From: a virus
Reading direction: 5' to 3' (one strand)
Length of the DNA: 64,000 nt
Virus record (IMG/VR): IMGVR_UViG_3300030099_005838
Part shown: piece after piece, positions 21,800 through 62,788 of the stretch
Position numbering within the stretch: the stretch's first letter is position 1
Layout of the letters: the number at the start of each line of letters is the position of its first letter
Program-made: the position numbers and the translations under genes
Notes under the pieces: model-generated
Seen by the model: only the letters and a program-made list of their open reading frames with translations
What the model was told of the DNA's origin: nothing
Databases searched by the model: none

Positions 21800-24700
21800 A
21801 TGCCAAGTTGGAAAAAAGTAATAACATCTGGAAGTAATGCTGCACTGAATCACATAACTTCTTCCGGTAACATAAGTGGTTCGGCAACCTCAACAGGTTC
21901 GTTTGGCCAGTTAGACTTACTTAGTAAGGGAAGTTTAAGAATTAATCAAGGTGGTCGTGGTGACGAGGGTTCTGGAAATAACAATGGTATAACTTTATTT
22001 CAATCGACCACATTTACAGGTAATTTAACTACTACTGCTAATCTCTTCAGTCGTATTTTTGATGACAATAAATTAGTTTTAGCAAACCATTTTAATAACG
22101 CTGGTGGTGGGATATCCTTACGGACAATGGCTGGTGGCTCTCAAAACTCAGCTATTGATATAGCTGGAAATACAGGCATAACTACAATAAATAAAGGACT
22201 TGTAGTAAGAGACTCAGCAACAATAAACACCGATTTAATAGTTACAGGAAGTATAAGTGGTTCGTCATCCTCAACGGGTTCATTCAGTAGGGCAGAAATA
22301 GCTGGTACAGGTAAATTTGGTAAGATAGGTATCAATGTATCAAATCCAGGTGAAGCATTAGAAATCAATGCTGGTAAATTAAAATTCTCAGGTCATGCCT
22401 CAGGTTTCGGAGCAGGGATGATCGGAATGACATCCAATTTTTTAGCACTGGTTGGTGGTTCTAACGGTATAGTGATAAATGGTGATAGCAACGGACTAGA
22501 TAAAAATAGCTTTACATTCACTGCTGCAAAAATAAGTGGCTCATCAACCTCAACTGGTTCTTTTGGTAGACTGGAACTTGGACAATCAAATGGTGCTCCA
22601 ATGGCAGTATATGGAAATGTTGGTACTGCAGGTATAAGACTTGAAAATTATAAAGGCTATCTTGAAATTGATCCTCACACTTCCACAGTTAACATAACTT
22701 CAAATAAAAATGAGATACAATTTCAGAATAGAATTGGCGCCAGATTTGGAATTACAGGCTACTCAACTAGTGATTTAGTATTTTTTACAAATAGTGGGAA
22801 TACAACTCATGCAACTTTTAGTCCTACAACCGGAACATCATTTACGCAAAATATAACAGGTAGTGGAAACTTAGAGATAGCTGGAAACATAAGTGGTTCA
22901 TCAACCTCAACTGGTTCGTTTGGTATGGGGTATTTCAACCAATTAGGAATATTAAATAAAAATCCATCTATACAGACTTCAGATGCTGATGATTTGGTTA
23001 TTGGGGATGGTGCTAGTGGAGTAAGTAGAGGAATCACTATATTCACAAGTGCTGGTAATAGTCTTGGCTCAATTCGTTTTAGTGACGACACAAGTGGAAG
23101 TTCAAGAAGAAGAGGTGAAATAAGATATGACCATGCTGATGATACCTTAACATTAGCAGCTAGTAAGACTGAGGTATTGGAAATTACTAGTGGTGGTGGA
23201 TTAGAAGTATTAACTGGAAACATAAGTGGTTCATCAACATCAACTGGTTCGTTTGGCACACTCGAAACACATGCTAATTCATCTAGTTCCTTTGGTGGTA
23301 GATTGAAAATAACGGGTGATATTATACCAGAAAATGATAATAAATGGAGATTAGGAGTTCTTGCTGGTTTTGGTGCTTGGAAGGAAATTCATAGTTATCA
23401 ACTTAATTTAAACAATGGAACTATAACAGGTCAAAATGGTGGTGATATTCATTTAAAAGCTGGTAGCGGCCCCACCGGTCAGTTATTTTTAGCAAGAAGT
23501 GGTGGTGGTAATGGTGTAGGAGTTCATACAAATTCACCTAATAGTAATACATTTCATGTAGCGGCATCAGGTGGTATTTTTTCAGAAAACAACATAAGTG
23601 GTTCAGCAGGTTCAACTGGTTCGTTTGGTTCAGTCCACACATCGGGCCAAATAGGAATACAAACAACTGCACCAAAGAAAGCTCTTACGGTTAAAGCAAG
23701 CGGTAACGATGATGGAATAGCACTTCTTGCAAGTAATGGTCAATTTGCTGCTCTTCTTCACCAACAAGACAATGATGCCGGAATGTTAAGATTACATGAT
23801 GATTCTTCAACCACAAAAATTGCTTTTAATGCTGATGATGGAGCTGATTCCTTCATTAACAATGGTGGAAGCTTTGGCATCGGCACCACAAGTCCAGATG
23901 GGTTAGTACATGCCTTTAGTGGAAATGCATCTCAAACAGCAAATGCGGCTGCAAATCAACTAATTGCAGAAAATAACACAAATGCTGGTGTCTCTATTTT
24001 GTCAGGTACAAGTCATAGTGGTGCAATATATTTTGGAGATTCTGGTAATGCTAAAATAGGAACTATAATTTATGACCACGGAGATGAACAGTTAAGGATT
24101 GGAGTAAACGATGCTGTTATTTTAACATTAACGGATTCAAAAATAAGTGGTTCATCAACCTCAACTGGTTCGTTTGGAAAGTTGTCTGTTGGCAGTGGTA
24201 ATATCACAACTTCAGGTAATATGGTACTTGATGCAGATGGTGCACAGATTAGATTGCAGGATGGTGGAACAGAGTTTGGTAGGATAAGTAGAGTCTCTTC
24301 GGACCTGGTTATAAAATCAATAAGTAATAATAATGATATATTGTTTAAAGGAGTCGATGGTGGTGGTACAATAACTGCACTACAGTTGGATATGTCAGAG
24401 GGTGGTAATGCAATATTTAGTGGGAATGCTACTGTACCTGGAACTTTAGCAGTTGATACCAATACATTATATGTAGATTCTTCAGCAAATAAAGTTGGAA
24501 TAAAAAGAATTGATCCCCAGTTCGAATTGGATGTTATCGGTGATATAAGAGCTACTGGTGATGTCATTGCAAAAAGGTATGTAATTAGTTCTTCTGTAAG
24601 TCACATTACATCAAGTTTCTCAAGTGGCTCAACAATTTTTGGTGATACTATCGCCGATACACATCGGTTCACAGGCTCGTTGAGTGTAACTGGCAGTGGT

Positions 24701-27700
24701 GATAAAGTTTTTGAAGTTGCATCTTTTTCAGGTGCGGTGCCAAGATTTAGAATAGATAATGATGCTACCAATACAATTGGTATCAATACAACTCCATCAA
24801 CAGGTTTGGTTGCTATAAGGTCGACTGGTAATGACGCTAATCAACTTTCTTTTCTAAACGGAGCTGGTACACATACAGGTGGATTCTATGATGCGGGTGG
24901 AAGATTAATATTACAATTAAAAAATTCAAGTGGTGCTACAAAGGTAAATATTGAACCCGGCGGTGATTCATATTTTAATGGTGGCAATGTCGGCATCGGT
25001 ATCACAAGTCCCGAAGGTTTATTACATATCTTTACTGCAGATGCCTCAATCGCACCAAATGTTGATGCGGATGAATTAGTTGTAGAGAATAGCGGTAATG
25101 CTGGTATTTCTATATTAAGTGGAAACACTTCTAATGGTGCTATATACTTTGGTGATGCTCAAGACAATAATATAGGTATGATTGATTATGACCATGCACT
25201 TAATAAAATTTCTCTTACGGCTGGTGCTACAACTCTTCCTGTATTTTCAGTTACAAGTAACACTGCAGAGTTTGGTCCTACTGTACTAAAAGTAAGTGGT
25301 TCATCAACCTCAACTGGATCGTTTGGTTCGTTGGTTATTTCCGATGCTATTCAAGGAGGTGGGAATGTTAAAGGTGGAGACTTTCAAATTAGTGCAAATG
25401 ATTTAGTAGTAGACGGTTTGGCAAATGCCACAGAAAGAGGTTTAGTGATTAAACATAGTGGTATGACTAGCAATACGGTTTCCTTAGTTCAAGATGCGAA
25501 CAATTCAAGGGGTGAATTGAATACAAAAAACAGGTCACTTTTTATTCAGGCAGGAACTGATGGTTTTGGTTCTGGTGAGAGGTTTAGAATATTGGTGAAC
25601 CAAATCGCGAGTCAAGATATTTTAAATGATGGAACAGTATTATTTCCTGTTGCTAATCAAAAAATAAGTGGTTCATCAAGCTCAACGGGGTCGTTTGGGC
25701 ATTTATTTATTGGACATAAAACTGGAAATGGTCATGCTAAGATAAGACTTTCGGCCGAAGCAGATACTAGTGGTGAAAGAGCGATAGAATTTTTTGAAGG
25801 TTCATTTAACAGATGGAGAATAGCTAATAGGGGAGCTAATGGTAATTTTAATATAGAAAGAAGTACAGATGGTACTACATTTGAATCCACACCTGTTTTG
25901 AGTATAGAAAAATCAAGTGGAAATGTAGAATTTCCTGTTGCTAATCAAAAAATAAGTGGTTCAGCAACATCAACCGGTTCTTTTGGTAGAATTGATGTAG
26001 CAGGTAAATTGTTTGTAGGTGGTTCTGAAGTGGGTGCTGGTGGCGGTGGTGGTAGCGCGGATAACTTGGGTAATCATACTGCAACACAAGATTTAGATTT
26101 AAATAGTAAATCAATTAAAAATATAATTCACATTACAGGTAGTGGAAACATAAGTGGTTCTACAACAACCACAGCATCATTTGGAAGTTTACAACTTCAT
26201 GGAAAAACAATACACACCACTAAGGCAAGTAAGGTTGGATTAGGTACAACTAACCCGTTAGGAAATAAACTACACATTCATGTTGGTGATTCTGGCACAG
26301 ATACAGTCACAACAAACAGTAGTTTAGTAATAGAAAGTAATACAAACAACTTTATACAAATGTTGAATCCAAACGGAAACAATAGTGGTATTATATTTGG
26401 TGAGCATAATGATATAGATATTGCAAGTATATTACATGACGGTGGGGATAACTCATTAAGATTTAATGTTGCAGCTGCAGAAAGAATTAGAATAAACGGT
26501 TCAGGTAATGTCGGCATCGGCACAACAAGTCCTTCTAAAACATTTCATGTCTACGCAAATGTATCAAGCGATTATGCCGCTCTCGTAGAAAACGACCAGG
26601 CAACAAGCGGACATGGACTACAAATACATAGTGATGGTAATGGAAGTGGAACAATACTATTTGATGTAGATGCCGCTGGCTCAAGTAGATTTAGAGTCAG
26701 AGGTGATGGTAGTGTATTGGTTGGATTTACAACATCTCAAGCTGAAAAGTTAGCCGTCAATGGTGATTTCAGAGCAACTGGAAACATAAGCGGTTCATCA
26801 ACCTCAACCGGTTCGTTCGGACATGTAATGCAAGATGGTAAAGGTTTACCACCACAATTTACAACAGGAAGTTCTATATTCATTGGTGAAAATGCTGGTG
26901 CTTCTGATGATGGTTCTAATAATAGAAATATCGGAATTGGTAAAAATGCTTTAGACGCTGCTACTACAGGACATTTAAACATCGCTATTGGTGATGATGC
27001 TCTAACTGATGTTACAACAGGAAATCATAATGTAGCAATAGGATTTGAATCACAAAAAGATACGACAGGTGGAAATAATACATCTGTTGGATATAACTCA
27101 TTAGAATTTAACACTTCAGGAAATAACAATGTCGCCATAGGTTATGCTGCTGCGGGTGGATTTACTTATTCCGGAGCTGATAATGTTGCTATAGGATTTG
27201 CGGCACTTGGTGGAAATAATGTGTCAGGAGATTTTAATATTGCTATTGGGAAACAGGCATTATATGCTAATACTACTGCAGATGACAATCTGGCAATTGG
27301 AGACTTTGCACTTACCAGTGTAGGTACAGATGCTAACTCTAGTAGAAATCTTGCAATAGGTTCTGAAGCACTAAGACATATTGTATATACTGCTGGTTCA
27401 AGTGGTTTCAACAATACTGCTTTAGGTTGGAACGCAGGAACAAGGTTTGGAGATAATGCAGGAAACTTAACAAGTGCAAGTTATGGTGTATATATCGGAC
27501 ACACAACTTATCCACTTGAAAATAATTCATATAACGAAATATTAATAGGTAGTCAAGTAAGGGGTAAAGGTTCAAATACGGCTACAATAGGTGATGGTAA
27601 CATTACAGACATTTATTTGAGTCAAGACCAAGGTGCAACTGTTCATACAGGTAATGTGAGTGGTTCAGCAACTTCAACTGGATCGTTTGGTAGAGTTTTC

Positions 27701-30577
27701 TCTGCAGATGATATTGAGTTGAAGGGTAATGCGGTAATTTTCAATATTTCAGATGGTTTTGTAACAAACGCTGGCGGAGCAATGACCATACAAGGAACTG
27801 GTAATGTGGTATTGGATGCTGGAGCTGGTGCTGATGAAGTTACATTAACAACAACATCACTTACAACAACAGTACCCTTTACAGGTTCAAGTGCTACATT
27901 TTCAGATAATGTAGAAATAATAAGCAGTAATGCATCAAATACAAAATTATTAATTGAAAATAACCATGCAAGTGCAAACGCTTTATTGCAGATTGATTCT
28001 TCAAATGATAGAGATTCAGTTATTCAATTACTTGAAAATGGTACTGCAAAATGGGATATAAGAAATGATGGTAATGATTCTGATAAATTAAAAATATCTG
28101 ATGATGGTCTTGTTAGAGTTACCTTAGATCAATCAGGTCAATTCGGCATCGGCACCACAAGTCCTCAAAAAGATTTACATCTTCATCAAAACAACAGTAA
28201 TACATTATTTGAAGCGCTTACAATCCGAACCAACTCAGCCGGAGAAGGATTAACTTTAGGTATTAATTCTACAAACGATGGATTTATTACCAGTCAAGTG
28301 GGTACAGCTCTAAGATTAGCTGGTGATAGTCAATCATATGCAACCGGTCATTTGTTGATTTACTCTGGCTCTGGTGATATAGAAGCCGTCAAAGGAAACA
28401 TAAGTGGTTCATCAACCTCAACCGGTTCGTTTGGAAAACTATTAGGTGATGGTAGTGATTTAACAGGTATAACTTCTTTCGCTGGTTCAGCCGGAACTGA
28501 AACATCTTTTAGTGGCTCAGCAGCCTCAACTGGTTCGTTTGGTGCAATAGGAATATTGACTCCTCCTACAAAACCATTTCACATAAATTCTTCAGGTGTA
28601 CACAGACCTATGCTTATTAAGTCTACAGGAGATCAAAATACGTTTATCGTAATGGATTCTAATAGGTCTGGTGCTGCATCTTTTACGGGTGGTATTGTTG
28701 GAAAATGGAACGGAACAGAAGTTTCATCTATCTATTTCAGAACTGGTGCTGATACAACAAATAAAGACGACGGATACATATCATTTCAAACTGCTGGCGA
28801 CGGTTCAGCATCTGAAAGAATGATAATTACAACTGGCGGAAAAGTTGGAATCGGAGGTCAATCACATGCAAATGTTGATGGCCTACTTCATGTTCATACC
28901 GGTACTGCAGGTTCTGTAACTTCTCCAGCTGTCGCAGATGATTTAGTTGTAGAAAATAGTGATCATGCAGGAATATCGATATTATCACCAGATGATAAAT
29001 TTGGAACATTAGGCTTCGGTAGTCCATCAGACTCAATAGCGGCTATGGTAAGATTCGATGAAGCCAATAAACGAATGATTATTGGAACAGTTGAAGGAAC
29101 AAGTGCTGGAAACATAAGGTTTGTTGTTGGAAATGAAACTACTGCTGCAGAAATTGATAGCAGTAAAAATTTAACATTATTTGGAAACATAAGCGGCTCA
29201 TCAACCTCAACTGGTTCTTTTGGTTCATTGGTTGTTGCTGATAAAGTACAAGGTGATTTAACAGTTGTTGGTAATGTAGTGGCTGAACAATACATTATAT
29301 CATCTTCTGTGACTCATCTGACTCAATCGTTTAGTAGTGGTTCAACCATATTTGGTGATACTTCAGATGATACCCATCGATTCACAGGTTCATTAAATGT
29401 TGATGGAAATATACAAAGCACTTCAGGTGATAATTTAAGTATCGGTACATCTTGGTCACCCGCTGGAACTTATGGAGTAGGCCGCTTTCATGGAGCACAT
29501 AACGGTGGTGGTACTCGTGTTATGTTCAGTAATGCTAATAGTAGTGTTAGATACGGTATTGTCATGCATGGTTCAGATACAGGAACTGCCGATAAGTTAG
29601 GCATCGGTTTGTTACTGAATGAGAATGCTACTTTTGCAAATGCATCTCCAGCAATGACGATAGATTCTAGTAAAAACATCGGGATGGGAACTCAAAGTCC
29701 TTCCACTAAACTGCATGTTTTTAGTTCAGGAAATGGTGGAATAGAAATAGATGGTTCAGGTGGTGCTCCAACACTATTTTTTGATATTCCTGGTAATGAA
29801 CAAGGAAGAATTTACTTTCAAGAAGATGATACACTACTCGGTGGTATAGTTTATGAGACAACAAGCACAGATTATTTGTCTTTTAGAGTAGGAGGTTCAA
29901 GTGCTAATGTTGAAAGACTTCGTATCACAGGTGATAATAAGATAAGTGGTTCAGCAACCTCAACTGGTTCGTTTGGTTCAGTTGAATCTGCTGGAAATAG
30001 TAGAATAAAAGGATTATTAAATGTTGAGGGTTCAAATGGTTTTGCAATAGGTTCACTTGCAGATGTAAAGAGAATTGATTCTGCAGGAAGTAGTAATAAT
30101 ACATTTAGATTCTTAGCAGCTAACGGACAATTTACAGGTATACATGCCAAACAGGCACTTTTTACTGATAATGTTATAGTCGCTGGTAACGTAAGCGGTT
30201 CAGCAACCTCAACTGGTTCGTTTGGTGCATTATCCGTACCTGGTCAGGCCACCATAGGTAGTGTGGTAGAAGCGTCTTCTATTATGTATAAAGAAAATGT
30301 CAAACAGATAGAAAGTCCATTAGAAAAGATAACAAAACTTCGTGGTGTAGAATTTGATTATAAAAAAACTAACGAACATAGTATAGGTATGATTGCAGAA
30401 GAAGTAAATGAAATATTTCCTGAACTTGTTGCAAAAAATGAGGATGGGGATGTAACTGCAATGTCTTACACAAGAATGACTGCGGTGTTATTAGAAGCAG
30501 TAAAAGAATTATCTGCTGAAGTCAAAGAACTTAGGAAACTTAATAATTATAGTAAATCAGGAGATAAAAAGAAATGA
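21800..30577 (+). CDS. Giant modular fibre-like protein with a C-terminal Peptidase_S74-type intramolecular chaperone
   Basis: About 18 SGSxxSTGSFG spacers; YadA-head-like NxAIGxxAL repeats (~26860-27640); C-terminus SSIMYKENV...LRGVEFDYK...GMIAEEV...PELV...LLEAVKEL. Confidence 0.8.
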   Translation: MPSWKKVITSGSNAALNHITSSGNISGSATSTGSFGQLDLLSKGSLRINQGGRGDEGSGNNNGITLFQSTTFTGNLTTTANLFSRIFDDNKLVLANHFNNAGGGISLRTMAGGSQNSAIDIAGNTGITTINKGLVVRDSATINTDLIVTGSISGSSSSTGSFSRAEIAGTGKFGKIGINVSNPGEALEINAGKLKFSGHASGFGAGMIGMTSNFLALVGGSNGIVINGDSNGLDKNSFTFTAAKISGSSTSTGSFGRLELGQSNGAPMAVYGNVGTAGIRLENYKGYLEIDPHTSTVNITSNKNEIQFQNRIGARFGITGYSTSDLVFFTNSGNTTHATFSPTTGTSFTQNITGSGNLEIAGNISGSSTSTGSFGMGYFNQLGILNKNPSIQTSDADDLVIGDGASGVSRGITIFTSAGNSLGSIRFSDDTSGSSRRRGEIRYDHADDTLTLAASKTEVLEITSGGGLEVLTGNISGSSTSTGSFGTLETHANSSSSFGGRLKITGDIIPENDNKWRLGVLAGFGAWKEIHSYQLNLNNGTITGQNGGDIHLKAGSGPTGQLFLARSGGGNGVGVHTNSPNSNTFHVAASGGIFSENNISGSAGSTGSFGSVHTSGQIGIQTTAPKKALTVKASGNDDGIALLASNGQFAALLHQQDNDAGMLRLHDDSSTTKIAFNADDGADSFINNGGSFGIGTTSPDGLVHAFSGNASQTANAAANQLIAENNTNAGVSILSGTSHSGAIYFGDSGNAKIGTIIYDHGDEQLRIGVNDAVILTLTDSKISGSSTSTGSFGKLSVGSGNITTSGNMVLDADGAQIRLQDGGTEFGRISRVSSDLVIKSISNNNDILFKGVDGGGTITALQLDMSEGGNAIFSGNATVPGTLAVDTNTLYVDSSANKVGIKRIDPQFELDVIGDIRATGDVIAKRYVISSSVSHITSSFSSGSTIFGDTIADTHRFTGSLSVTGSGDKVFEVASFSGAVPRFRIDNDATNTIGINTTPSTGLVAIRSTGNDANQLSFLNGAGTHTGGFYDAGGRLILQLKNSSGATKVNIEPGGDSYFNGGNVGIGITSPEGLLHIFTADASIAPNVDADELVVENSGNAGISILSGNTSNGAIYFGDAQDNNIGMIDYDHALNKISLTAGATTLPVFSVTSNTAEFGPTVLKVSGSSTSTGSFGSLVISDAIQGGGNVKGGDFQISANDLVVDGLANATERGLVIKHSGMTSNTVSLVQDANNSRGELNTKNRSLFIQAGTDGFGSGERFRILVNQIASQDILNDGTVLFPVANQKISGSSSSTGSFGHLFIGHKTGNGHAKIRLSAEADTSGERAIEFFEGSFNRWRIANRGANGNFNIERSTDGTTFESTPVLSIEKSSGNVEFPVANQKISGSATSTGSFGRIDVAGKLFVGGSEVGAGGGGGSADNLGNHTATQDLDLNSKSIKNIIHITGSGNISGSTTTTASFGSLQLHGKTIHTTKASKVGLGTTNPLGNKLHIHVGDSGTDTVTTNSSLVIESNTNNFIQMLNPNGNNSGIIFGEHNDIDIASILHDGGDNSLRFNVAAAERIRINGSGNVGIGTTSPSKTFHVYANVSSDYAALVENDQATSGHGLQIHSDGNGSGTILFDVDAAGSSRFRVRGDGSVLVGFTTSQAEKLAVNGDFRATGNISGSSTSTGSFGHVMQDGKGLPPQFTTGSSIFIGENAGASDDGSNNRNIGIGKNALDAATTGHLNIAIGDDALTDVTTGNHNVAIGFESQKDTTGGNNTSVGYNSLEFNTSGNNNVAIGYAAAGGFTYSGADNVAIGFAALGGNNVSGDFNIAIGKQALYANTTADDNLAIGDFALTSVGTDANSSRNLAIGSEALRHIVYTAGSSGFNNTALGWNAGTRFGDNAGNLTSASYGVYIGHTTYPLENNSYNEILIGSQVRGKGSNTATIGDGNITDIYLSQDQGATVHTGNVSGSATSTGSFGRVFSADDIELKGNAVIFNISDGFVTNAGGAMTIQGTGNVVLDAGAGADEVTLTTTSLTTTVPFTGSSATFSDNVEIISSNASNTKLLIENNHASANALLQIDSSNDRDSVIQLLENGTAKWDIRNDGNDSDKLKISDDGLVRVTLDQSGQFGIGTTSPQKDLHLHQNNSNTLFEALTIRTNSAGEGLTLGINSTNDGFITSQVGTALRLAGDSQSYATGHLLIYSGSGDIEAVKGNISGSSTSTGSFGKLLGDGSDLTGITSFAGSAGTETSFSGSAASTGSFGAIGILTPPTKPFHINSSGVHRPMLIKSTGDQNTFIVMDSNRSGAASFTGGIVGKWNGTEVSSIYFRTGADTTNKDDGYISFQTAGDGSASERMIITTGGKVGIGGQSHANVDGLLHVHTGTAGSVTSPAVADDLVVENSDHAGISILSPDDKFGTLGFGSPSDSIAAMVRFDEANKRMIIGTVEGTSAGNIRFVVGNETTAAEIDSSKNLTLFGNISGSSTSTGSFGSLVVADKVQGDLTVVGNVVAEQYIISSSVTHLTQSFSSGSTIFGDTSDDTHRFTGSLNVDGNIQSTSGDNLSIGTSWSPAGTYGVGRFHGAHNGGGTRVMFSNANSSVRYGIVMHGSDTGTADKLGIGLLLNENATFANASPAMTIDSSKNIGMGTQSPSTKLHVFSSGNGGIEIDGSGGAPTLFFDIPGNEQGRIYFQEDDTLLGGIVYETTSTDYLSFRVGGSSANVERLRITGDNKISGSATSTGSFGSVESAGNSRIKGLLNVEGSNGFAIGSLADVKRIDSAGSSNNTFRFLAANGQFTGIHAKQALFTDNVIVAGNVSGSATSTGSFGALSVPGQATIGSVVEASSIMYKENVKQIESPLEKITKLRGVEFDYKKTNEHSIGMIAEEVNEIFPELVAKNEDGDVTAMSYTRMTAVLLEAVKELSAEVKELRKLNNYSKSGDKKK

Positions 30578-33500
30578 CGATGTTCATATCAAGTTCATCA
30601 ACCTCAACTGGATCTTTTGGCTTAGCACAATCAGAATTTGTACAGCATAGAGTTTTAAAAGGTTGGTATCAAGGTAATAATATATATGATTTACCAAGTG
30701 GCGGTAGTGCAGGAATTAGGATTGCACCACCAACACCCGCGAGTGGTAACAGCTCCCTACCTATTCAATTTACCAACAATGCTGTCCAAATACAAAGAAG
30801 TCATAATACTCTTAGATTGGAGGCTTTTCAAGGATCCGTTGCAATATATGACACACTTAATACAGAAACAATTGCTACATTTGGTAGAAGTGGCCTTACT
30901 TTTAGTTTGGGAAGCATATCAGGTATTACTCATGTATCAGCTAGCGGTAATATAAGTGGTTCATCAACCTCAACTGGTTCGTTTGGTACATTACGAGTTG
31001 GTACTAATGTAGGAAGTTTATCTTCAGGTTTAGTATTTGGAGATGGTGATACTGGTTTCTACGAACATGCTGACGATGATGTATTTTTCAAAAGAGGTGG
31101 TAATACTGTATTTAGAGCAAATACATCTTCACAATTAGACTTTGGTGTTCAACATTTATTTTTTAATACAACTGGTGGTTTTTTTATTACTACAGGAGCT
31201 GGTAGTGCAGCAGCACCAAACTATGTATTCAGAGGTGACCAAGATACAGGTATGTTCCGTATTGATGCCGATAGACTTGGTTTTAGTGCTGGTGGAGCAT
31301 TACAATTAGAAATATCTTCAAATAAAATAAGTGGTTCAGCAGCCTCGACTGGTTCATTTGGAAGAATAGAGGTACATTCTAATACTGGTTCGTTTGCACA
31401 TATTGAAAATTCTTCAAATATCAGAACTGCAAAATTATCGTTGACTGGCGGAGGTGGTGGAGACACTACATTTGTAGTAACAAATTTTGGCGGTGGTAAT
31501 TTATTGACATTGACAAATGCTGCAACATCTATACTATATGATGGTAGGCACGGACAATCTGTCGCGGGTTTATATTTTAATGTAAATAATACAGCTATGT
31601 TGGGTAACTTGGCATCATCCGCAACAGTACCAGCATTTAAATTTAAAGGTGATACAGATACAGGATTAGGTCGTGCAGATTCAAATCAATTATCATTAAT
31701 TACAGGTGGTGTAGAAGCTTTAAGGGTAACAGAAACATTGATAAGTGGTTCAGCAACCTCAACCGGTTCGTTTGGTGAGTTACAAGTCAGAGGTGCTGGT
31801 CAAGAAAAAATAAGTTTATTTGGAAATGCACAACAATTTATAAACTTTGGTGATGCCGCAGATAGTAATACTGGTATGATACAATATGACCATAATAATA
31901 ATCAGTTTCAATTTTATGCTAATGCTACAAATATATTAAGAGTTTTAGGTAGTGGATTTGTATTACCTTCTTCTAATGAAGGTGTTAGTTTAGGTTCGAC
32001 ATCCCTCAAATGGAAAGAATTGGTAGTAAATCATGTAAGTGCAAGTGGTAACATAAGTGGTTCAGCAACCTCAACAGGTTCGTTTGGTAAAATTGTAATT
32101 CCGATGCAAGGAAACAATGTTGCATTTGAGGCTCTAAATGGTAATTTTTCAGTAGCTAATACTATATTCCAACATTCAGCAAATGGTGGTAATCTACAAT
32201 TTGGTTCACAAACTGCTGGATTCTTCCATTCGCTTGGTAAAGTTTTTACAAGAAAAGATGGTGGATACGGAGACGGTGGTGATGAGGCATTTAAAGCCAC
32301 AGACCATCCTGTTGCTGCTGGTTTTTGGGTTGATTCTGCTGGTAATATGCAATTTGGACATGATAATGGAGCTGGAGTTAGAAATACTGTACAGATGATG
32401 ACTTTAGGGCCACAAACTGGACATGCTTCTGGTAGTCTATTAGTATCTGGTAGTATTATAGCTAAAGAGGGAGACGTAAGTGGTTCAGCGACCTCAACCG
32501 GTTCGTTTGGAGTCATTCAAAATCCAAGTGGTTTGTTTTTAGGTAGTACAAATGCCGCACATCAGTTTAGTCAAATAACTTCTACCAATCATCTATTCAT
32601 CGGAGCTGGTGCATCAACAGTTCAAATGCAAAATGATTTAATTCCTGATGGTAATGGAAGTCAAGACTTAGGTTCAACCCTCAGAAACTTTAATCAAATT
32701 TTTGCTAGAACAAAAGTTACTGGTTCATCAATTTCAACTGGTTCGTTTGGTTCGGTTTTTATTAAAAATCAAAGTAATTTACAATTTGGAAGCATAAACA
32801 CAAGAATCAGAGGTGATAATAGTAATAATGTGATTACATTTATGACAAACAATACCGAAAGGGTTCGTATCAATGATGATGGAGTGGGAATCGGTGGTGA
32901 TCCTGTTGCTTCCAATGGACTCACAATACATGCTGTAAATCCAGGTTTAACCCTACGGTCATCCAACACGACAGGTGCGTGTAAGTTAAGATTTGCGGAT
33001 ACCGGTGATGCTGATATAGGAATGATTGAATATGGTCATTCTTCTAACGCTATGGTATTCAGTACAGGTGATGCAGAAGCATTCAGATTGGATACAAATC
33101 AAAATGCTATTTTTGGTGGTAGTAAAATAAGTGGTTCAGCAACCTCAACCGGTTCGTTTGGTGAGCTACAAATTCATGATAAGATTGGAATCAATACTGC
33201 TGATGCTGGTGCCGTAAGTCCTGCAAGTCCACATACTGGTGCGAAAACAGGATTGATGGAAATAAAGGCTAAGAGTAGTGGTGGTGATGCAGCTTTATTA
33301 ATAAGAAGATTTGAGGGTGATGGTGCTTATGGAATGGATCTGTGGACAGACACAAATGCAGCTGATAGTTATATCGATCAAAGAGGTGGGATATCAGGTG
33401 CACAGTTATACATTAGAACAGCAACACATACTAGTGCTGTAAATGCAGCAATATTCGATCATGTAGGAAATGTTGAGTTTCCAAGTGCAACAACAATAAG

Positions 33501-36500
33501 TGGTTCAGCAACCTCAACCGGTTCATTTGGTAATGTCTACGTTGGAAAGGGTGGTGCTCAATTTCAAAATACTAAATTCGCTGTAGTTGATAACAATAGC
33601 ACAGAATACGCTCCGATGGGTGGTAGTTCAAATACTGCAAATGCTATGATTCAGTTTACTAATACAAATACTTCTGCTACTGCTCCACATTCCTTAATAC
33701 ATTTCAGATTGGATAAGAGTGGTGGTGATGGTTATGTAGGATTTATGACATCTACCTCAACAGGTAATATAGAACACTTTGTTGTTGGTAATCAGGTTGA
33801 TGGAGAAATCATCAGAGGGGCAAGTGGAGGCAACGTTGGTATTGGAGATTCGAATCCATCTGGTAAGCTTGTTGTTTCTGGTTCAGGTACTATAAACCTA
33901 CATATAGATAATAGTGGAACTGGTGATACCGGTTTATTAGGAAAGCGTAATGCAACCTCTATATTTGGAATGTTCGATGATGCTAGTGATAGTAAACTAA
34001 GAATAGTAAATTATCAAGCAGAACCGATTGAATTTAGTGTGGATAGGGGTGGTACTGAAACCATTGTGATGACAATGATGAATTCAGGCAGAGTCGGTAT
34101 TGGAAATACAAGTCCTGAGAGTATCTTAGATGTCAGCGGTTCGAATTCATTTGGACAATTACAGATACGTGATGGTAATAATAGTATTTACAGAAGATTT
34201 TTTGTATCAGCATCAGGTGCTCATGGTTTAGGAACATTACACATTCAAAATAGAGCATTTCCTGGCAGTGGAACAGGTGATGTCTACACCCATTTCAAAA
34301 GTAGTGTAGCAGGCGGTACAACTCGAATGAATGTTATGATAGATGGTAAGTTAGGATTAGGAACTACAGATACAGTTCCTGAACAGGCTATACACATTAA
34401 AGCTGCTAATCCAAAGATACAATTTCAAGATACAAGCGTTAGTAATTTAAAACACGTATTATCTGGCGGTGATGGTGATGCTGGTATGGCTTATGAAGCA
34501 GATGTAAATAATGTCGGTGCTGGTTATCACGCATTCAAAATGGGTGGTGCTGAAAGAATTAGATTTATTGAAAACGGTAGTGTTGGCATCGCAGATACTA
34601 GTCCTGCACAACCATTAGTAGTAAGTGGTAGTAGTAAAGGATTGTTATCAGTTGGATTAGCTGGTGGTGGTTCAAGAGTCACTATTGGTGATACCTCTAT
34701 GGATAGTGCACTACATATGAGAAGAAGTAGTAACGGTGCAGCCGATGTTCAAGTTTTACAATTAGGTAGCTCTCTCCATGTGGGTGCTACGAGCAACGTT
34801 ATAAATACCTTGATTCAATCGAATACTTCAGTATTAACAGTTGGTTCAAGCAAAGTGACTTCAAATGCTTCTATTGAACCTACTGCGGATGCTTCATTCA
34901 ACTTAGGTGCTGCAGATAAAAGATGGGCGAATATATTCTCTGCTGACCTTCAACTATCTAATGAGGGAACTGAAGGAAATGAAGTTGATGGAACAACAGG
35001 TTCTTGGACAATTCAGGAAGGTGAAGATGACTTATATTTATTGAATAGAAAGAATGGTAAAAAATACAAGTTTAAACTTGAGGAGATAACCTAATGGCAA
35101 TAACCACCAAAAAATTAATAGCTGAAGAATACGTTGTATCCTCTTCGGTAACCCTAATGACCCAATCATTTGCCAGTGGTTCAACTGTATTTGGTGACTC
35201 CTTAGATGATACCCATAGAATGACTGGTTCTCTATTTGTTAGTGGTGGAATATCAACCGATGGTAGTGCTGGTGGAACTGCCACATTTAAAGGAACTTCA
35301 GCACAATCCACATTGAATCTCCAAACTTCTGTAAGTAATTTTGTTGTAGGGTTGTCAAACTCATCTGGTAGACTTGATTTAAGACCTGGTGGTTCAACAG
35401 CACTAACAGTAATTAATTCAGGTAATGTCGGCATCGGAAATACAAGTCCTGGTGCTAAACTAACAATCGGTGGCTCATCTTCATCAGGATTACATGACAT
35501 CAGATTGGAAAACTCATCTGCTCAAATTAAGATAGGAGTAGCAGGTGGTGGTAGTGATATTGTTAGTTCAGCTGTGGCTGGTGACTTTATCATCTCAAAT
35601 GTTACTGGTGGAACAAAGAGTATATTGTTTGGTATCGGAACATCTGAACATATGCGTGTTGACCATTCAGGTAATATCGGCATCGGACAATCAAGTCCTT
35701 CACATCCACTAGATGTCGCTGGTGTTATCAGAACAACTGGTACAGGTACAAATTCTTCGGTTCGCCTTAATAATACAACTAGCAGTACAGGTAATGAATG
35801 GCAGTTGTACAGTTATAATAATGGCGATTTTAGTATTTACGAAACAAGCGACAGGTTATACATAAAGAGTAATGGCAATATCGGCATCGGGGAAACAAGT
35901 CCAGACCAAAAACTTCATATAAAAGCAGCAACACAAATGAGACTTGAAAGGGCAAGTGTCGCCTCTTACGATACTCTTATAGATAATTTAGTCACAGGAG
36001 ATACGGCTGATTTGACATTTCAAGCTCAAACATCAGATACAGGATTTTTATTTCAATCTAAAAATAGTAGTGGTACACAGATTAACGCACTAGCCATAAA
36101 TGAGGCAGGTAAAGTCGGCATCGGGACCACAAATCCAGATGCAAGTTTACATATATCCTCATCAGTCGGTTCTTCAACCTCATCACTGCATATCGAAGGT
36201 AGTGGTTCTTCTGTTGTCGCAGTCGATGGAACACAAGGAAGATTATTCTCAATAACAGACGAATTATCAGGTAGTTTATTTAGTGCAAACACAATATCTG
36301 GTTTGCCTGTAATAGAGGCTTTCTCAGATAATAAGGTAACATTAGGCCCGTTTAGTAAACCTATTACAGTTACATCTACAGGAAACATAAGTGGTTCAGC
36401 AACATCAACTGGTTCGTTTGGTTCGTTGGTTGTAGCTGATAAGGTTCAAGGTAATTTAGTAGCTAGTGGGAACATAACCACAGGGGGACAGATACTAAGT

Positions 36501-39500
36501 CCAGGTGGTTCAAACATAGCATTAAATCCAAATACTGGTTTGGTTACAATTGCTAATAATTTACAACTTTCAGGATATGTACAAGCGGCTGGTAATTTAG
36601 TAAGTACAGGAGCAAATGCAAAAATAAGTGGTTCATCAACCTCAACTGGTTCGTTTGGTAATGTTTTTGTCAGAGATGAGATTGAAATAACCGATTCAAA
36701 CACAGCAATATGTGAAGGTAATAATAATTCCGTAAGATTGAAAACCAATAACGGCTACATAGAGATAGGACCACAAAATTCTACACTAGCACATATCTAT
36801 ACTGATAGAAACCAGGGTTTCTTTTTCAATAGGGCTATAGGTGTTCATAATAACAAAATATACGTGGGAGACTTTGGTTCAGAAATAATAACAATAGATC
36901 CGGATGTTTCAGGTGGTAGTCCAAAAATAAGTGGTTCAGCATCTTCAACCGGTTCGTTTGGTAAGGTGAGTGTTGGAACTGCAAATCCGAAGTTCGCACA
37001 TTTAAATGTTGAGGGTGATATTGCATTGGGAACATATGCTGCAAACATGAATCGTAGAATTGGTTTACAAAGAAGTGATGGTGGTGGTTGGTCAAATACA
37101 CCACATATAACTTTTTCCACCGATGGTGGTGCTGATGCGAGTATCAAATTTTCAGTAATAGATTCAGGTGTAGCCGGATATGCTGATGCTGTGGTGATTG
37201 ATAAGTCTGGCAATGTCGGCATCGGAGAAACAAGTCCTTCTGTACCACTTCATGTTTCAGGTGATGGAGGTGCTAGTGATCCACTAGCAACAATGTTACT
37301 AGAATCAACATCAAATCATGGTGGATTGGTAATCAATGCACCTGCAAGCAAACAAACTCACCTTAGATTCCAAAACAATGGTTCTTTAAAATGGCAAATA
37401 AGGTCGCCGTTTCATGATGGTACAAATCCAGATTCTTTAAGAATCTATAGTTGGACGTACGGTGGTGATGTTATGGTATTTAAAAATGATGGCAATGTCG
37501 GCATTGGAACAAATAATCCTGTACAAAAACTTCATCTTCACGGTGGAAGCATGTACATGCAAACCGGACAAAATATTACATGGAATAATGGCGATGTTCA
37601 AATAGGAGCTATAAGTGGTTTTCACTTTAGAATACAAACATATACTGGCTCTTCACTAACAGAAAAAATGCGTGTTACGTCAGGTGGTAATGTCGGCATC
37701 AACACATCAAGTCCTTCAGCCAAATTGCATGTATCTGGCGCGGCCTCAACTACAGCCACATTAATTGAAGGACGTACTAATGGCAACGTTCCAATTCTTC
37801 ATATCAAAGACAAAGCAGATATGTTTGTTGCTATGTTTGAGGGTCAGAGAGCTGGTGATACTGGAGCTGTAGTTTCTATTTATCATAATCCAACAACATC
37901 ACAAGAAACCAACAGAACAATGTTAAACTTTCAAATGAATGATGATGGTGATAACAGAACTACTTATGCTCAACTTTTTTCCGGCATTGATGATCACACA
38001 GATGGTACAGAGGATGGTAATTTACAAATTAAGACAGTTGAAAATGGCACTCTAACTGAACAAATGACAATTAATTCAACGGGTGTGGGCATCGGAGAAA
38101 CTAGCCCATCATTCCCATTAGATGTTGTAAAGTCTGCTAATACAGGTGATCCATTAACACAAGCAACTGCTTATCAACTAGGTATAAGAAATTCAAACGG
38201 AAATTCAGGTGCCGCTACTTCTATAGCATTTGGACATGAGACTTTTGATTTCTCAGCTTTCATTAGTGCTCTAAGAACTAGCTCAGGTAATCACCCAACT
38301 GCTGATTTGACATTTGGTGCTAGGCCATCCGATAACGCTACTTTTGTTGAGAGAATGCGTATAGTTGGTGCATCAGGCAATGTCGGCATCGGCGAAAATA
38401 GTCCTTCAGCTAAACTACAAATCAAAGGTGGTGGTATAACCGTATCTGGCTCTAATGATACAAGTCCAATACAGGCAATGTTAATCAAAACAAGTGCGGC
38501 TTCATCACAAGGATTAATCGGAGTCGAAGGTAATACCGCGGGTGCTTTTATAACAGGTACAGTTGCTAGGGCTATGGTTGTGGCATCAAGTGCTAGTGGT
38601 ACAGCACTACAATTAGGTGCCGCTGGTTCAGTTGGATTAACAATGTTATCAAATGGTGATATAGGTATCAATGATACAAGCCCATCATTTAAATTAGATG
38701 TAAATGGAACAGGTAGATTTACTGGAAATGTTGCACTTTCAGGTGATAATGCTCAATTATCAATAGGCCATACTGGAGAAACTCATTGGGGAACTGGATT
38801 TGATATTTTAGAAGTCGGTCACTCTATGGCATTGTTCTGTGAGACCGCTGATGGAGCTGATAGAAATGCTTTTGTAGCAAACAATTTATATGCTGATGGT
38901 GATGGATTAAAAAGACATTATACTGATCAAACTGTAAGTATACTTTTAAGAGCTGGTTTTATAGCATTTAGAACAGATGCAAGTGGAACTGCTGGAGCAG
39001 TATTTACACCAAGTGAAAGAATGAGAATTACTGAAGATGGCAATGTCGGCATCGGGACTACAAGTCCTGTAGGACTTTTAACATTATACGATCCAGCAAG
39101 TGGTGATAATAAATTAAGATTTCAAAATTCAACTACTGGAGTCACAACTAGTGATGGAAGTAGAATTGGATTGAATGGTGCTGAACTTTTTATTAATAAT
39201 ATAGAAAGTTCTAATATAAAAATTTATACAGGTAGTACACAAACTCAAGGTATAACCATTGATAGTTCAGGTAAAGTCGGCATCGGGATCACAAGTCCTA
39301 CAGGTAAATTGCAAGTAGCAGGTGATATAGTAATCGCTCAAGGAAGTAAATTAAAAGAACCAGATGGTAATGCATACATATCATTTGATTCAAGTTATCA
39401 CATAACAGGTTCATCTGCTGGTGATATAGTATTTGATATCGATAACAATGGTAATGAAACAAATAGTTTTCTTAGAATAACCAAAGATAATCAAGCAACT

Positions 39501-40885
39501 GAGCTAATGAGAGTTCAAGAAAATGGCAATGTCGGCATCGGCACAAATAATCCTGATGTTAAATTTCACGTATTTGATAGTAGCGCTCTAAGTGTTGAAT
39601 TTGAAAGTAGTACAGGTAATGTAGATTTAACAATCAATTCAGGAACAGATGGCGCAGTTGAAAAATCAAGTATTCTTCTTCAAGCTAACAGCTCAAACAA
39701 ATGGGAAATACTAAAGACAACTAGCGATAACTTTCAGATTTACGATTATGGTCGTTCAGCGGGTGTGTTAGATATTATTTCTAATGGCAATATGGGATTA
39801 ATGGCTGATGGTGGAAATGTCGGCATCGGCACCACAAGTCCTGATACAAAACTTCATTTAGCAGATAGTAGCGATGTATATTTAACATTAGAATCTACTC
39901 ATGCATCAACACCTGAAGAAGCAGCAATTAAGTATAGTAATTCTTCTACTTCGGCAAATTATTGGTGGGCTGGATTAAATCAATCAGATGATTACTCATT
40001 GGCTTATGGAACTTCTTTTAGTGGAGCTAATACTAGATTTTTAGTTACTGAAACGGGCAATGTCGGAATCGGAGTTACAGATCCTGATAGTGCTTTAGAA
40101 GTAAAATCATCAGATGATACTTTCTTAAAGGTTTCTACTGGAAATGATACATTTCATGCTAGAATAAAAGCCAGTATTTCAAACGATACTCCAATGCAAA
40201 TGACAGGTATTAGCGGTCATGCTTGGATGAAACAGAGAGGTGGTGATGGTGAAGTAACATTCTTGACTAACGGTGGAAATGAAAGAATGCGTATAGATGG
40301 TTCAGGCAATGTCGGCATCGGCACCACAAATCCTGGTGCTACATTAGATATTTTAGGTCCAAGTGATGGTGTAAATTTAAGATTAAGTGATGTAGCTGGT
40401 AATTCTACAACAAAAGAAGCTCGTATAGGTGTGAGACACTATACAGAAGCTGAAGAAGATACTGCTTTAATGTATGCTCAATCTGGTAATGGAACTTCTG
40501 CAGTCTATATTGGTGGTGGAACAGGTGTGATGAATGCTGTAGAACTTATTGGTTTCGTAACTGCAGCTACTGATACTACTTTATCTGGAACTACAAGAAT
40601 GGTTATTGATAGTGGAGGTAAAGTCGGCATAAATCATGACAGTCCTAGTGCAGTATTGGAAGTAAAAGGTCAGACGGGGGTATCAAGTACTGCTCTTATC
40701 ACACACGGTTTAGTTCAGATGAAGACAACTCATAATGATAGTAGTGAATTAAGACACCAATTCTCTATGGGTGGTGCATCTGATCCAGGCAGTTACAATA
40801 TTTATCAAGGAAATGCCTCTACAATCGGTGTTCATTTAGATGCAGGAGATGATTCCTTTTTCCTAAATAGTGTCGGTATCGGTGG
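23870..40885 (+). repeat. Dispersed in-frame repeat family GG(C/T)AATGTCGGCATCGG..AC.ACAAGTCC (GNVGIGTTSP)
   Basis: About 20 copies, mostly in the 2175-aa gene (e.g. near 24984, 26503, 35419, 37209, 38376, 39039, 39524, 39815, 40305). Confidence 0.88.
30574..35094 (+). CDS. Giant modular fibre-like protein
   Basis: About 9 SGSxxSTGSFG spacers; C-terminus RWANIFSADLQLSNEG...GSWTIQEGEDDLYLLNRKNGKKYKF, typical of marine phage fibre ends. Confidence 0.75.
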   Translation: MTMFISSSSTSTGSFGLAQSEFVQHRVLKGWYQGNNIYDLPSGGSAGIRIAPPTPASGNSSLPIQFTNNAVQIQRSHNTLRLEAFQGSVAIYDTLNTETIATFGRSGLTFSLGSISGITHVSASGNISGSSTSTGSFGTLRVGTNVGSLSSGLVFGDGDTGFYEHADDDVFFKRGGNTVFRANTSSQLDFGVQHLFFNTTGGFFITTGAGSAAAPNYVFRGDQDTGMFRIDADRLGFSAGGALQLEISSNKISGSAASTGSFGRIEVHSNTGSFAHIENSSNIRTAKLSLTGGGGGDTTFVVTNFGGGNLLTLTNAATSILYDGRHGQSVAGLYFNVNNTAMLGNLASSATVPAFKFKGDTDTGLGRADSNQLSLITGGVEALRVTETLISGSATSTGSFGELQVRGAGQEKISLFGNAQQFINFGDAADSNTGMIQYDHNNNQFQFYANATNILRVLGSGFVLPSSNEGVSLGSTSLKWKELVVNHVSASGNISGSATSTGSFGKIVIPMQGNNVAFEALNGNFSVANTIFQHSANGGNLQFGSQTAGFFHSLGKVFTRKDGGYGDGGDEAFKATDHPVAAGFWVDSAGNMQFGHDNGAGVRNTVQMMTLGPQTGHASGSLLVSGSIIAKEGDVSGSATSTGSFGVIQNPSGLFLGSTNAAHQFSQITSTNHLFIGAGASTVQMQNDLIPDGNGSQDLGSTLRNFNQIFARTKVTGSSISTGSFGSVFIKNQSNLQFGSINTRIRGDNSNNVITFMTNNTERVRINDDGVGIGGDPVASNGLTIHAVNPGLTLRSSNTTGACKLRFADTGDADIGMIEYGHSSNAMVFSTGDAEAFRLDTNQNAIFGGSKISGSATSTGSFGELQIHDKIGINTADAGAVSPASPHTGAKTGLMEIKAKSSGGDAALLIRRFEGDGAYGMDLWTDTNAADSYIDQRGGISGAQLYIRTATHTSAVNAAIFDHVGNVEFPSATTISGSATSTGSFGNVYVGKGGAQFQNTKFAVVDNNSTEYAPMGGSSNTANAMIQFTNTNTSATAPHSLIHFRLDKSGGDGYVGFMTSTSTGNIEHFVVGNQVDGEIIRGASGGNVGIGDSNPSGKLVVSGSGTINLHIDNSGTGDTGLLGKRNATSIFGMFDDASDSKLRIVNYQAEPIEFSVDRGGTETIVMTMMNSGRVGIGNTSPESILDVSGSNSFGQLQIRDGNNSIYRRFFVSASGAHGLGTLHIQNRAFPGSGTGDVYTHFKSSVAGGTTRMNVMIDGKLGLGTTDTVPEQAIHIKAANPKIQFQDTSVSNLKHVLSGGDGDAGMAYEADVNNVGAGYHAFKMGGAERIRFIENGSVGIADTSPAQPLVVSGSSKGLLSVGLAGGGSRVTIGDTSMDSALHMRRSSNGAADVQVLQLGSSLHVGATSNVINTLIQSNTSVLTVGSSKVTSNASIEPTADASFNLGAADKRWANIFSADLQLSNEGTEGNEVDGTTGSWTIQEGEDDLYLLNRKNGKKYKFKLEEIT

Positions 40886-41624: not shown

Positions 41625-42311
41625 GTGGCCTTACAATACAATCCAAAAATAATAACAAAAGGTTTGGTTATGAACTTAGATACTGCCGATAAAAACAGTT
41701 ATCCTGGTTCGGGTACGACTTGGACAGATTTATGTGGAAATGGTTTTAATGCAACGGTAGGTAGCAGTGTAAGTTTCCAGACAGTTCATGGTGGAGTTCT
41801 CCGAACATTGAATTCAGAAACTAACACTAATCAAAAGATAGAATCCGTTGGTTCTATAAATATTGCTGCATGGAATAAGTACACCTTTGAAATATGGTTT
41901 AAGAATAACGGTTCACAAGGAGGTGATTGTAGTGCATTTGGTTTTGACAATGGGAGTCAAACCAGCTATGGTGCGCGATATCAAGGTTCACAAGTTCAAA
42001 CTTGGATAAATGGAACTTTGGACTTTGGATTAAGTTTCACTGCAGATACAGCAATTCAACAAATAGTAATAACCGGAGATGGACAAACATTCAAGTTGTA
42101 CAAAAATTCTCTCTTGGCAACAACTAAAACTGCAGATGTAACAAATACAGGTCCAGATATACAAAGATTTCATATGAATTCAGATACAAGGACATCTTCT
42201 AACAATGGATATAATGGTGACTATGCAATATGTAGAATGTATAATGAAGTCCTAACACCAACTGAAATAAAACAAAATTACGATGTAAATCGTCCAAGAT
42301 TTGGAGATTAA
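41625..42311 (+). CDS. LamG/concanavalin A-like lectin-fold virion protein
   Basis: GLVMNLDTADKNSYPGSGTTWTDL...YTFEIWFK...CRMYNEVLTPTEIKQNY..RFG. Confidence 0.7.
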   Translation: MALQYNPKIITKGLVMNLDTADKNSYPGSGTTWTDLCGNGFNATVGSSVSFQTVHGGVLRTLNSETNTNQKIESVGSINIAAWNKYTFEIWFKNNGSQGGDCSAFGFDNGSQTSYGARYQGSQVQTWINGTLDFGLSFTADTAIQQIVITGDGQTFKLYKNSLLATTKTADVTNTGPDIQRFHMNSDTRTSSNNGYNGDYAICRMYNEVLTPTEIKQNYDVNRPRFGD

Positions 42312-42313
42312 TT

Positions 42314-43018
42314 ATGGGAGTAGCAAGTAATCCATCAATAGTAAAGTCAGGCCTTATAGGATTTTACGATGCAGTTGCAACAGGTTCCTCTGCAAGCACC
42401 TGGCAGGATTTATCAGGCAACAGTAATAATATCACGTTATCAGGTACTCCTACTATGGCTTCTTATAATCAACAATCCATTATGCATTTGGAAAAGGAAG
42501 ATGGTCAATACGGTACATTTGGTAGTAACCTGTTTTCTGGTTTGACTACTATGACAGCTAATTTTTGGGTACGATTTGAACAAGTTCAAAGTAGTGCTAC
42601 TACACCCTACTATCAATTACTAATTTTTGAAACATGTTGTTGGATAGCACAATATGGAGGAAAGATAGGAATAGATTTATCTGATGGTAGTTGGTTCGAT
42701 GGTAATGGTGGAACTAATACAGGTGCACAAATAGACGATGGTGGAAGCAATATAACAACAGGTAAGTGGTATAATCCATGTTTTACTTGGGGTGGTACTA
42801 CAGTTAATTGTTACATGAATGGTGAACATCAAAGGTCAAGAACCACAACCGGCGTCGATACTTTAGGTTCAGGAACGACACCAAGAAGAATTGCTTTTAG
42901 GGGAGCGAATACTCAATTTGATGGTGACCTTACTATAATTCAGTTGTACAATAAGACATTAAGTGCTAAAGAGGTGAGACAAAATTATAATGCATTTAAA
43001 GGCAGATTTGGATTATAA
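42314..43018 (+). CDS. LamG/concanavalin A-like lectin-fold virion protein
   Basis: GLIGFYDA..WQDLSGN..MTANFWVR..WYNPCFTW..YMNG..IQLYNKTLSAKEVRQNYNAFKGRFGL. Confidence 0.75.
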   Translation: MGVASNPSIVKSGLIGFYDAVATGSSASTWQDLSGNSNNITLSGTPTMASYNQQSIMHLEKEDGQYGTFGSNLFSGLTTMTANFWVRFEQVQSSATTPYYQLLIFETCCWIAQYGGKIGIDLSDGSWFDGNGGTNTGAQIDDGGSNITTGKWYNPCFTWGGTTVNCYMNGEHQRSRTTTGVDTLGSGTTPRRIAFRGANTQFDGDLTIIQLYNKTLSAKEVRQNYNAFKGRFGL

Positions 43019-62772: not shown

Positions 62773-62788
62773 TTAATTGGAGAAAGAT

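Follow-up and report, generated by a model that had tools for sequence, protein, structure and literature searches.

Introduction

Tail fibres decide which bacteria a phage infects. In the modular theory of Susskind and Botstein, lambdoid phages are said to carry 'boundary sequences', short stretches of conserved DNA between modules that were proposed to target homologous recombination. Repeated crossover sites within host-recognition genes are also the hallmark of shufflons and multiple inversion systems (Min of p15B, Gin, Cin, R64), which produce alternative C-termini and require inverted sites together with a dedicated invertase. The term boundary sequence itself appears in PMC3233612. For T-even phages, the account of Tetart et al. 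(1996/1998) given in Trojet et al. (2011; PMC3157838) describes His boxes in gp37, glycine-rich motifs in gp38 and exchanges within or near these motifs. Here, we analyze a 64-kb window (the whole stretch of DNA examined, 64,000 nucleotides (nt) of the IMG/VR virus record IMGVR_UViG_3300030099_005838), in which three giant fibre genes carry two families of short repeats, GNVGIGTTSP and SGS(S/A)TSTGSFG. Both are fixed on particular synonymous codons, a property that we call the codon lock, and both coincide with places where fibre modules change partners among related phages.

As far as that account of the T-even system goes, the window resembles gp37/gp38 in that short conserved motifs part modular or hypervariable segments of host-recognition genes, and chimeric fibres arise. 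As in the studies of Tetart et al., breakpoints fall in or next to the conserved motifs, and the motifs are conserved at the nucleotide level among the exchanging phages. The window differs from what is described there in that GNVGIGTTSP lies in probably beta-helical modules, at tens of copies per gene against about five, in a far-T4 marine phage; moreover, the evidence presented here is comparative (synonymous lock, block switch points) and does not come from crosses. Unlike lambdoid boundary sequences, the joints of the window lie inside an open reading frame (ORF) and encode a structural element, and they are therefore under constraint both as protein and as DNA. A close structural parallel is provided by the Bdellovibrio MAT/S74 phage fibres (PMC10769870; 8OND, 8OML, 8OJN), which share the element ERMRIxxxGN(V/L)G(I/L)GTxxPxxKLxV, an S74 chaperone, a mosaic design and probably a trimeric beta-helix. 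That work, however, deals with proteins and structures, and we did not find a nucleotide-level lock of the motif in it. Nor did we find a paper describing this codon lock in the literature on the motif and on concerted evolution of fibre repeats.

Results

Three giant fibre genes are partitioned between two repeat families

The fibre genes, all on the + strand, sit between the neck genes and the sheath gene. Gene A (21800-30577) encodes 2925 amino acids with 4 strict GNVGIG-type motifs and 17 SGS motifs, gene B (30574-35094) 1506 amino acids with 2 and 7, and gene C (35094-41621) 2175 amino acids with 14 and 4; a preliminary description of this DNA had proposed such a split of the locus between two repeat classes, and these counts agree with it. 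A Peptidase_S74 intramolecular chaperone (PF13884) forms the C-terminal part of the products of gene A (amino acids 2827-2877, E 1.8e-11) and gene C (amino acids 2066-2121, E 8e-13), and a search of gene B with the PF13884 profile returned no match. The product of gene C matches solved Bdellovibrio MAT fibres (Bd2133, 8OND, E 5e-8; 8OML, E 1e-5; also 8OJN) in alignments that pass through the element given above, and Caulton et al. (2024; PMC10769870) describe a related motif as a loop that caps the trimeric beta-helix at its edges. Judging from these PDB sequence matches, the segment ...GNVGIGTTSPxxKL... is probably a structural element that recurs along a trimeric beta-helical tail fibre.

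The GNVGIG motif is locked on rare codons

We anchored motif copies on the protein pattern [VIF]GIGxxxP, which occurs 20 times in the window (4 copies in gene A, 2 in B and 14 in C). The preliminary description spoke of about 20 copies of a nucleotide word; that number holds for the protein pattern, the 14-mer AATGTCGGCATCGG being exact just 9 times. The 11-mer GTCGGCATCGG has 11 exact copies, and 18 at no more than one mismatch, for a chance expectation of zero. All are on the + strand within 24989-40882, and the search for the word outside the fibre genes that had been suggested found no copy of GTCGGCATCGG in the whole 64 kb. Exact copies of the 20-mer GGCATCGGCACCACAAGTCC stand where they had been reported (23876, 28145 and 39822), and two more copies are found at one mismatch.

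The C-ending codons described for the motif, set against AT-ending surroundings, are confirmed by counting. The V of the motif is GTC in 14/16 copies, and xTC in 17/20 once the I and F variants are included; the G is GGC and the I is ATC in 17/20 copies each. In the rest of the window, which served as background in place of a whole genome, GTC, GGC and ATC make up 10%, 6% and 15% of their codon families. The corresponding shares are 14%, 10% and 17% in the whole fibre genes and 7%, 4% and 21% in the capsid, sheath, tube and portal genes. Under fibre-gene codon usage, the probability of at least 13 GTC-GGC-ATC triplets in 16 is about 4e-32. When the first residue changes from V to I to F, the third-position C is retained.

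The fixation holds for the V, G and I core, and on one point the preliminary description needs correcting. The bracketing glycines are invariant as residues and free as codons (G(-2): GGC 11, GGT 6, GGA 2; G(+3): GGA 8, GGC 7, GGG 4, GGT 1), and the N and H of the motif are on AAT and CAT rather than on C-ending codons. V-G, G-I and I-G dipeptides that lie elsewhere than in the motif are encoded by GTT/GTA, GGT/GGA and ATA/ATT, so local codon context is not the explanation of the lock. The modules between motifs are strongly diverged and the synonymous identity of the flanks equals the expectation from codon usage; the copies are therefore not recent duplicates.

Three further candidates were tried and rejected. 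Codon-pair or k-mer avoidance is ruled out by the common codons of identical dipeptides elsewhere. A foreign GC-rich origin, GC standing for guanine plus cytosine, is ruled out by the GC content at third codon positions (GC3) of the flanks, 0.16 observed against 0.17 expected. Selection for optimal codons or accuracy is ruled out by codon choice in the capsid, sheath, tube and portal genes.

A second locked motif, SGS(S/A)TSTGSFG

The SGS family comprises 28 copies at 21875-41095 (e.g. 25295, 26789, 33499 and 36390) and is locked over about 36 nt as ATA AGT GGT TCA (G/T)CA ACC TCA ACY GGT TCG TTT GGT. Rare codons stand in it beside common ones: ACC encodes 17/21 Thr (background 13.5%) and TCG is present in 22/28 (background 4-6%). 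Because rare and common codons are mixed, the lock is an arbitrary spelling and not a matter of GC content as such.

The lock is general, and its spelling is specific to the lineage

For a scan of IMG/VR, GNVGIGTT(S/T)P was back-translated with full degeneracy, which leaves codon choice unbiased; the resulting sample comprises 434 motif copies in 120 loci (designated by L numbers). The V, G and I codons track the GC content of the contig, and loci of 32-38% GC mostly use GTA/GTT, GGT and ATA/ATT at these positions. Copies within a locus agree, on a spelling that differs from locus to locus. GTTGGTATA (10/13 copies in L055), GTCGGTATC (8/10 in L025), GTAGGAATT and GTGGGCATC (4/5 in L070) were all found, as were GTAGGAAT(T/A) in L084 and, in the GC-richer phage L115, GTCGGCATC in 5/5 copies; at L089 (32% GC), GGC and ATC are each present in 6/7 copies.

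For the 44 viral loci with at least 4 copies, synonymous identity was compared with the expectation from the codon usage of the host ORF itself. It lies above expectation just at motif positions -4 to +6 and is level with it on both sides. At -2..+5 the excess per locus is +0.20 (43/44 loci positive, P 1.6e-12); for the flanks it is +0.013. Identity is 0.54-0.81 within a locus and 0.31-0.49 between loci of the same GC class, with a difference only at -2..+6; the spelling is therefore lineage-specific and not a shared positional preference. Core GC3 is over-dispersed among loci, with a modest mean bias toward GC (+0.11, P 0.0025). A GC-rich core occurs in several AT-rich loci, including the window (GC3 0.53 observed, 0.15 expected), L089 (0.64, 0.19), L004 (0.56, 0.15) and also L082, L104 and L012. 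The reverse, an AT-rich core lock, is seen in L055 (0.06 against 0.19 expected), L086 and L021. The motif is thus not a universal DNA word, and it is the lock itself that is general and lineage-specific.

Cellular genomes, scanned with the same degenerate pattern, show this effect with about half the homogenisation, the excess being +0.10 and positive in 41/55 loci (viral against cellular, 0.20 vs 0.10, Mann-Whitney P 2e-4). The cellular fibre loci with the motif (L376-L495) belong to Patescibacteria, Bacteroidota, Bdellovibrionota and others.

Fibre modules change partners at the motifs

Two phages whose sheath proteins are 63-65% identical to that of the window, L134 and L126, spell the motif GTC GGC ATC. 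Closer relatives, found through gene B, carry GTCGGCATC in 16/30 (L318), 8/12 (L322), 5/7 (L321) and 3/4 (L258) copies, and L134 is likewise among the relatives with GTCGGCATC. The fibre genes of these relatives are mosaics of the modules of the window. Examination of relatives had been proposed in the preliminary description, which held that freely varying synonymous codons would speak against its idea: such variation is found among distant phages only, and the clade of the window keeps the same nucleotide motif and swaps modules at it.

L318 and the window share 14 blocks of 74-96% nucleotide identity in scrambled order. In L134, a module like gene C (73% amino acid identity) directly precedes one like gene B (55%), and the partner changes at a motif position. 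Some adjacent blocks of the window map non-adjacently in a relative. Such blocks have 14-68 nt in common at their junction, and this common stretch is one or the other of the two motifs. The joint at the GNVGIGTTSP copy at 26504-26533, where the L318 blocks overlap at 26507-26544, is demonstrated by a three-way alignment: the left flank is 90% identical to one place in L318 (a) and 30% to another (b), and the right flank 36% to place a and 82% to place b. Another joint lies at the GNVGIGETSP copy at 37209-37238, on which two non-adjacent L258 blocks overlap (37208-37262).

Most of the module-switch joints seen against L318 are borne by the SGS family. On the + strand, two non-adjacent L318 blocks overlap on SGSSTSTGSFG at 25293-25326, and further block overlaps lie on SGS(S/A)TSTGSFG at 26807-26820 and on SGSATSTGSFG at 33493-33534; one more, at 25953-26020, is also on SGS(S/A)TSTGSFG. 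In the all-against-all comparison of the clade, the two motif families account for 9/11 non-collinear joints while making up about 9-12% of the sequence (binomial 2e-7). One of the only two joints off both motifs is a 245-nt insertion in L318 (window 24428-24439, L318 709-954).

The copies of the GNVGIG motif, all on the + strand, can be set against the ends of the homology blocks. At the first two copies in gene A, a block of L322 begins on GSFGIGTTSP (23867-23896) and another, of 92% identity, begins 13 nt upstream of GNVGIGITSP (24983-25012); past the joint at 26504-26533, gene A has one further copy, GQFGIGTTSP (28136-28165). Of the two gene B copies, that at 33829-33858 has the variant spelling GTT GGT ATT, and at the other, GRVGIGNTSP (34087-34116), the L318 block stops and an L134 block starts. 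Both gene B copies have the GGT ATT spelling, as do L316/L317, and this spelling may mark modules brought in from another gene pool.

In gene C, block ends of L134, L258, L316/L317 and L318 coincide with motif copies. The L134 block starts at 35421 and the L318 block stops at 35452, around the copy at 35421-35450; the L316/L317 block begins on GNIGIGQSSP (35670-35699) and stops on GNIGIGETSP (35874-35903); an L258 block stops on the copy at 37491-37520, and an L318 block begins at the end of that at 38376-38405. A block of L134 at 87% identity begins just after the degenerate copy SVGIGGAPG (40866-40895). The other copies are GKVGIGTTNP (36108-36137), TGVGIGETSP (38079-38108), 39039-39068, 39270-39299, 39525-39554, 39813-39842 (with the exact 20-mer), 40056-40085 (a GGA variant) and 40305-40334.

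Counting block ends no more than 25 nt from GNVGIG sites alone over the whole 19.8 kb gives 11/80 against 4.1 expected, an enrichment kept moderate by genes A and B, whose joints are mainly of the SGS kind; the test based on joints is cleaner. Logan contigs from four marine runs also have joints and loose ends at motif copies, which are k=31 contig ends at repeats and are uninformative on recombination.

The phage and its gene content

The window spans the structural region of a large myovirus of the T4 type and has 35.4% GC and a GC3 of 0.19-0.24. It encodes a terminase (3655-5268), a portal protein (5279-7096), a gp21-like prohead protease (9254-9856), the major capsid protein (12924-14591), a tail sheath (43489-45996), a tail tube (46152-46640) and a thymidylate synthase (57477-58169). 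Two + strand genes at its end belong to the recombination machinery of the phage itself, a gp32-like single-strand DNA-binding protein (61944-62702) and a recombinase of the UvsX/RecA family (62777-63886), the latter reaching nearly to the end of the window. The nearest cultured relatives by capsid protein are Microcystis phage Mel-JY01 (51% identity) and the Flavobacterium 'immuto' phages (47%), and we call this a far-T4 marine phage because the protein is just 47-51% identical to theirs. No tRNA gene was found in the 64-kb window, and scans of its ORFs with Pfam and PHROGs revealed no site-specific recombinase, invertase, integrase, homing endonuclease or reverse transcriptase domain.

A megablast search of gene C against cultured phages gave no match, and gene C searches yielded few relatives (2 loci in viral contigs and 5 in metagenome contigs). 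A near-complete gene C is present in marine metagenome runs of several studies (2014-2018), and partial ones in others up to 2025, so the phage or its fibre modules are widely distributed in the sea.

Two side observations concern the fibre genes. Amino acids ~1710-1957 of gene A (about nt 26930-27670) consist of degenerate N(I/V)A(I/L)G...AL...TTG repeats, unlike either joint family, and in an alignment of about 300 amino acids they are 30% identical to the upstream fibre ORF of L134. Directly 3' of gene C, two adjacent genes (41625-42311 and 42314-43018) encode small paralogous proteins that both match PHROG 'virion structural protein' families. The second has a Laminin_G_3 / concanavalin-A-like lectin domain (E 1.8e-16), and the pair may serve as adhesins at the fibre tip or as accessory receptor-binding proteins.

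Discussion

The interpretation that we favor, with a probability of roughly 0.6, is that the motifs are short-homology recombination joints evolving in concert and that the GC-rich state in the window is a lineage-specific outcome. In this model, the ~30-nt coding sequence of the GNVGIG motif, and likewise that of SGS(S/A)TSTGSFG, would act as a short-homology joint at which fibre modules are exchanged, reordered, gained and lost, both within a genome and among co-infecting relatives. The motif would be the sole stretch common to otherwise unrelated modules, and strand exchange or template switching would start or resolve just there. With recombination and heteroduplex repair confined to the motif, its synonymous sites would evolve in concert within one gene pool: repeated exchange and repair would homogenise the silent sites of the motif as flanks and module interiors drift. 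Drift, perhaps with a modest GC bias, would pick the winning spelling in each pool, and the clade of the window would by this route have fixed GTC-GGC-ATC, a rare and GC-rich set of codons.

The phage's own UvsX and gp32 are a plausible engine. We infer that homology itself drives the exchanges, probably via these proteins or by template switching, and homogenisation could be their cause or their by-product. The preliminary description had suggested a recombination joint or a protein-binding site embedded in coding sequence; the spelling kept by relatives, the partner switches in the motifs and the motif-only homogenisation in 43/44 loci support the first of these, and the second found no support, as discussed below.

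Several observations weigh against this interpretation. Exact identity between motif copies is short, with a median of 10 nt and a maximum of 23 nt, and reaches 20 nt or more in only 8/190 pairs. Tracts this short fall under the minimal length that RecA-type recombination usually needs, and events would therefore be rare or mediated by microhomology. The locked tract is also patchy and sharply bounded, with G(-2) and G(+3) not homogenised in the window and P(+7) and L(+11) homogenised nowhere, which a simple conversion tract would not predict. The joints are just 11 in number; the window-L318 pair supplies most of them, and several show one rearrangement from both sides, leaving perhaps 6-8 independent events. 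Selection for domain swaps that stay in register could set joints at the motif with no role for DNA homology, and cause (selection for exchangeability) and consequence (conversion) are not separable here.

A rival that we regard as unlikely is a filter at the protein level only, in which recombination is illegitimate or random, the chimeras that fold and survive are those joined at a structural boundary (the motif), and the codon lock has a separate cause. The coincidence of the joints with the conserved capping loop of the beta-helix (PMC10769870; PDB matches) fits such a filter, as do the short tracts of exact identity. It leaves unexplained, however, why synonymous homogenisation is confined to the motif in all but one of the 44 loci, with spellings specific to the lineage, and why phages that share modules also share a spelling.

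Translational selection, either through a rare-codon pause at module boundaries that would assist co-translational folding or trimer registration, or through accuracy at invariant residues, seems to us quite unlikely. In its favor, the genes for capsid, sheath, tube and portal also have the locked codons as rare ones, these codons occupy a fixed structural position, the SGS motif too contains rare ACC and TCG, and core GC3 is above expectation on average across loci by the +0.11 given above. Many AT-rich phages, though, lock their commonest codons (L055, with GTTGGTATA; L016, L021 and L086), and a pause, conceivable in the clade of the window, is therefore not a conserved feature. The equally invariant G+3, P+7 and L+11 are unlocked, and N and H avoid C-ending codons; the accuracy version fails because the locked codons are not those preferred in highly expressed genes.

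A sequence-specific DNA or RNA site within the coding sequence, whether the target of a nuclease or recombinase, a Chi-like site or the site of a regulator, is very unlikely. The fixed 11-nt word does contain a direct TCGG-CA-TCGG repeat and occurs on one strand and in the fibre genes only. The word nevertheless changes by lineage while the phenomenon persists, and a weaker form of the effect is present in cellular genomes too; with no site-specific recombinase detected in the window, the protein-binding site of the preliminary description loses its footing. Unlike the sites of shufflons, the 18 matches are all direct and none is inverted, and there is no invertase among the ORFs of the window, which excludes an inversion system. 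Unlike a diversity-generating retroelement, the window has no reverse transcriptase domain, and its repeats are conserved rather than variable, so that this type of mechanism is excluded as well; no homing endonuclease was detected in the 64 kb either. Unlike a Chi hotspot, the word is limited to fibre genes within the 64 kb and differs between lineages.

Plain ancestry from an undecayed GC-rich founder, or an identical peptide context that dictates the codons, is scarcely tenable and largely refuted: the V to I to F variants do keep their third-position C and GC-richer phages such as L115 routinely spell GTCGGCATC, but the synonymous sites and GC3 of the flanks are at background, the adjacent G codons are randomised, the same dipeptides use common codons elsewhere, and relatives at saturated divergence keep the spelling.

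A broader extension of the recombination-joint model can be offered tentatively, as a possibility that we consider well short of probable. GNVGIGTTSP might work as a 'splice site', dual-coded and general, for the genes of trimeric fibres in phages and fibre-bearing bacteria. Its spelling would then act as a barcode of recombinational compatibility that determines between which genomes receptor-binding modules can be exchanged, and biased heteroduplex repair, or selection for a more stable pairing of short homologies, would have pushed some lineages to rare GC-rich codons.

The joint principle itself is already known from T-even fibre motifs and boundary sequences, and it is unusually well documented here. 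What is new is a different and very widespread motif in the giant fibres of far-T4 marine phages, with a quantified, lineage-specific synonymous lock. The finding also carries a warning: rare codons that run together in repeats are not necessarily a sign of regulation. For annotation, the lock is usable as a marker of module boundaries, and the motifs are natural junction sites for the engineering of chimeric fibres. For these phages, our analysis provides a rule, readable from sequence, for how the modules of giant marine fibre genes are rebuilt, namely by exchange at two codon-locked motifs, and the lock offers a way to tell which uncultured phages draw on a common fibre gene pool. If the barcode idea is true, fibre gene pools, and hence the evolvability of host range, would be readable from the spelling of the motif in metagenomes.

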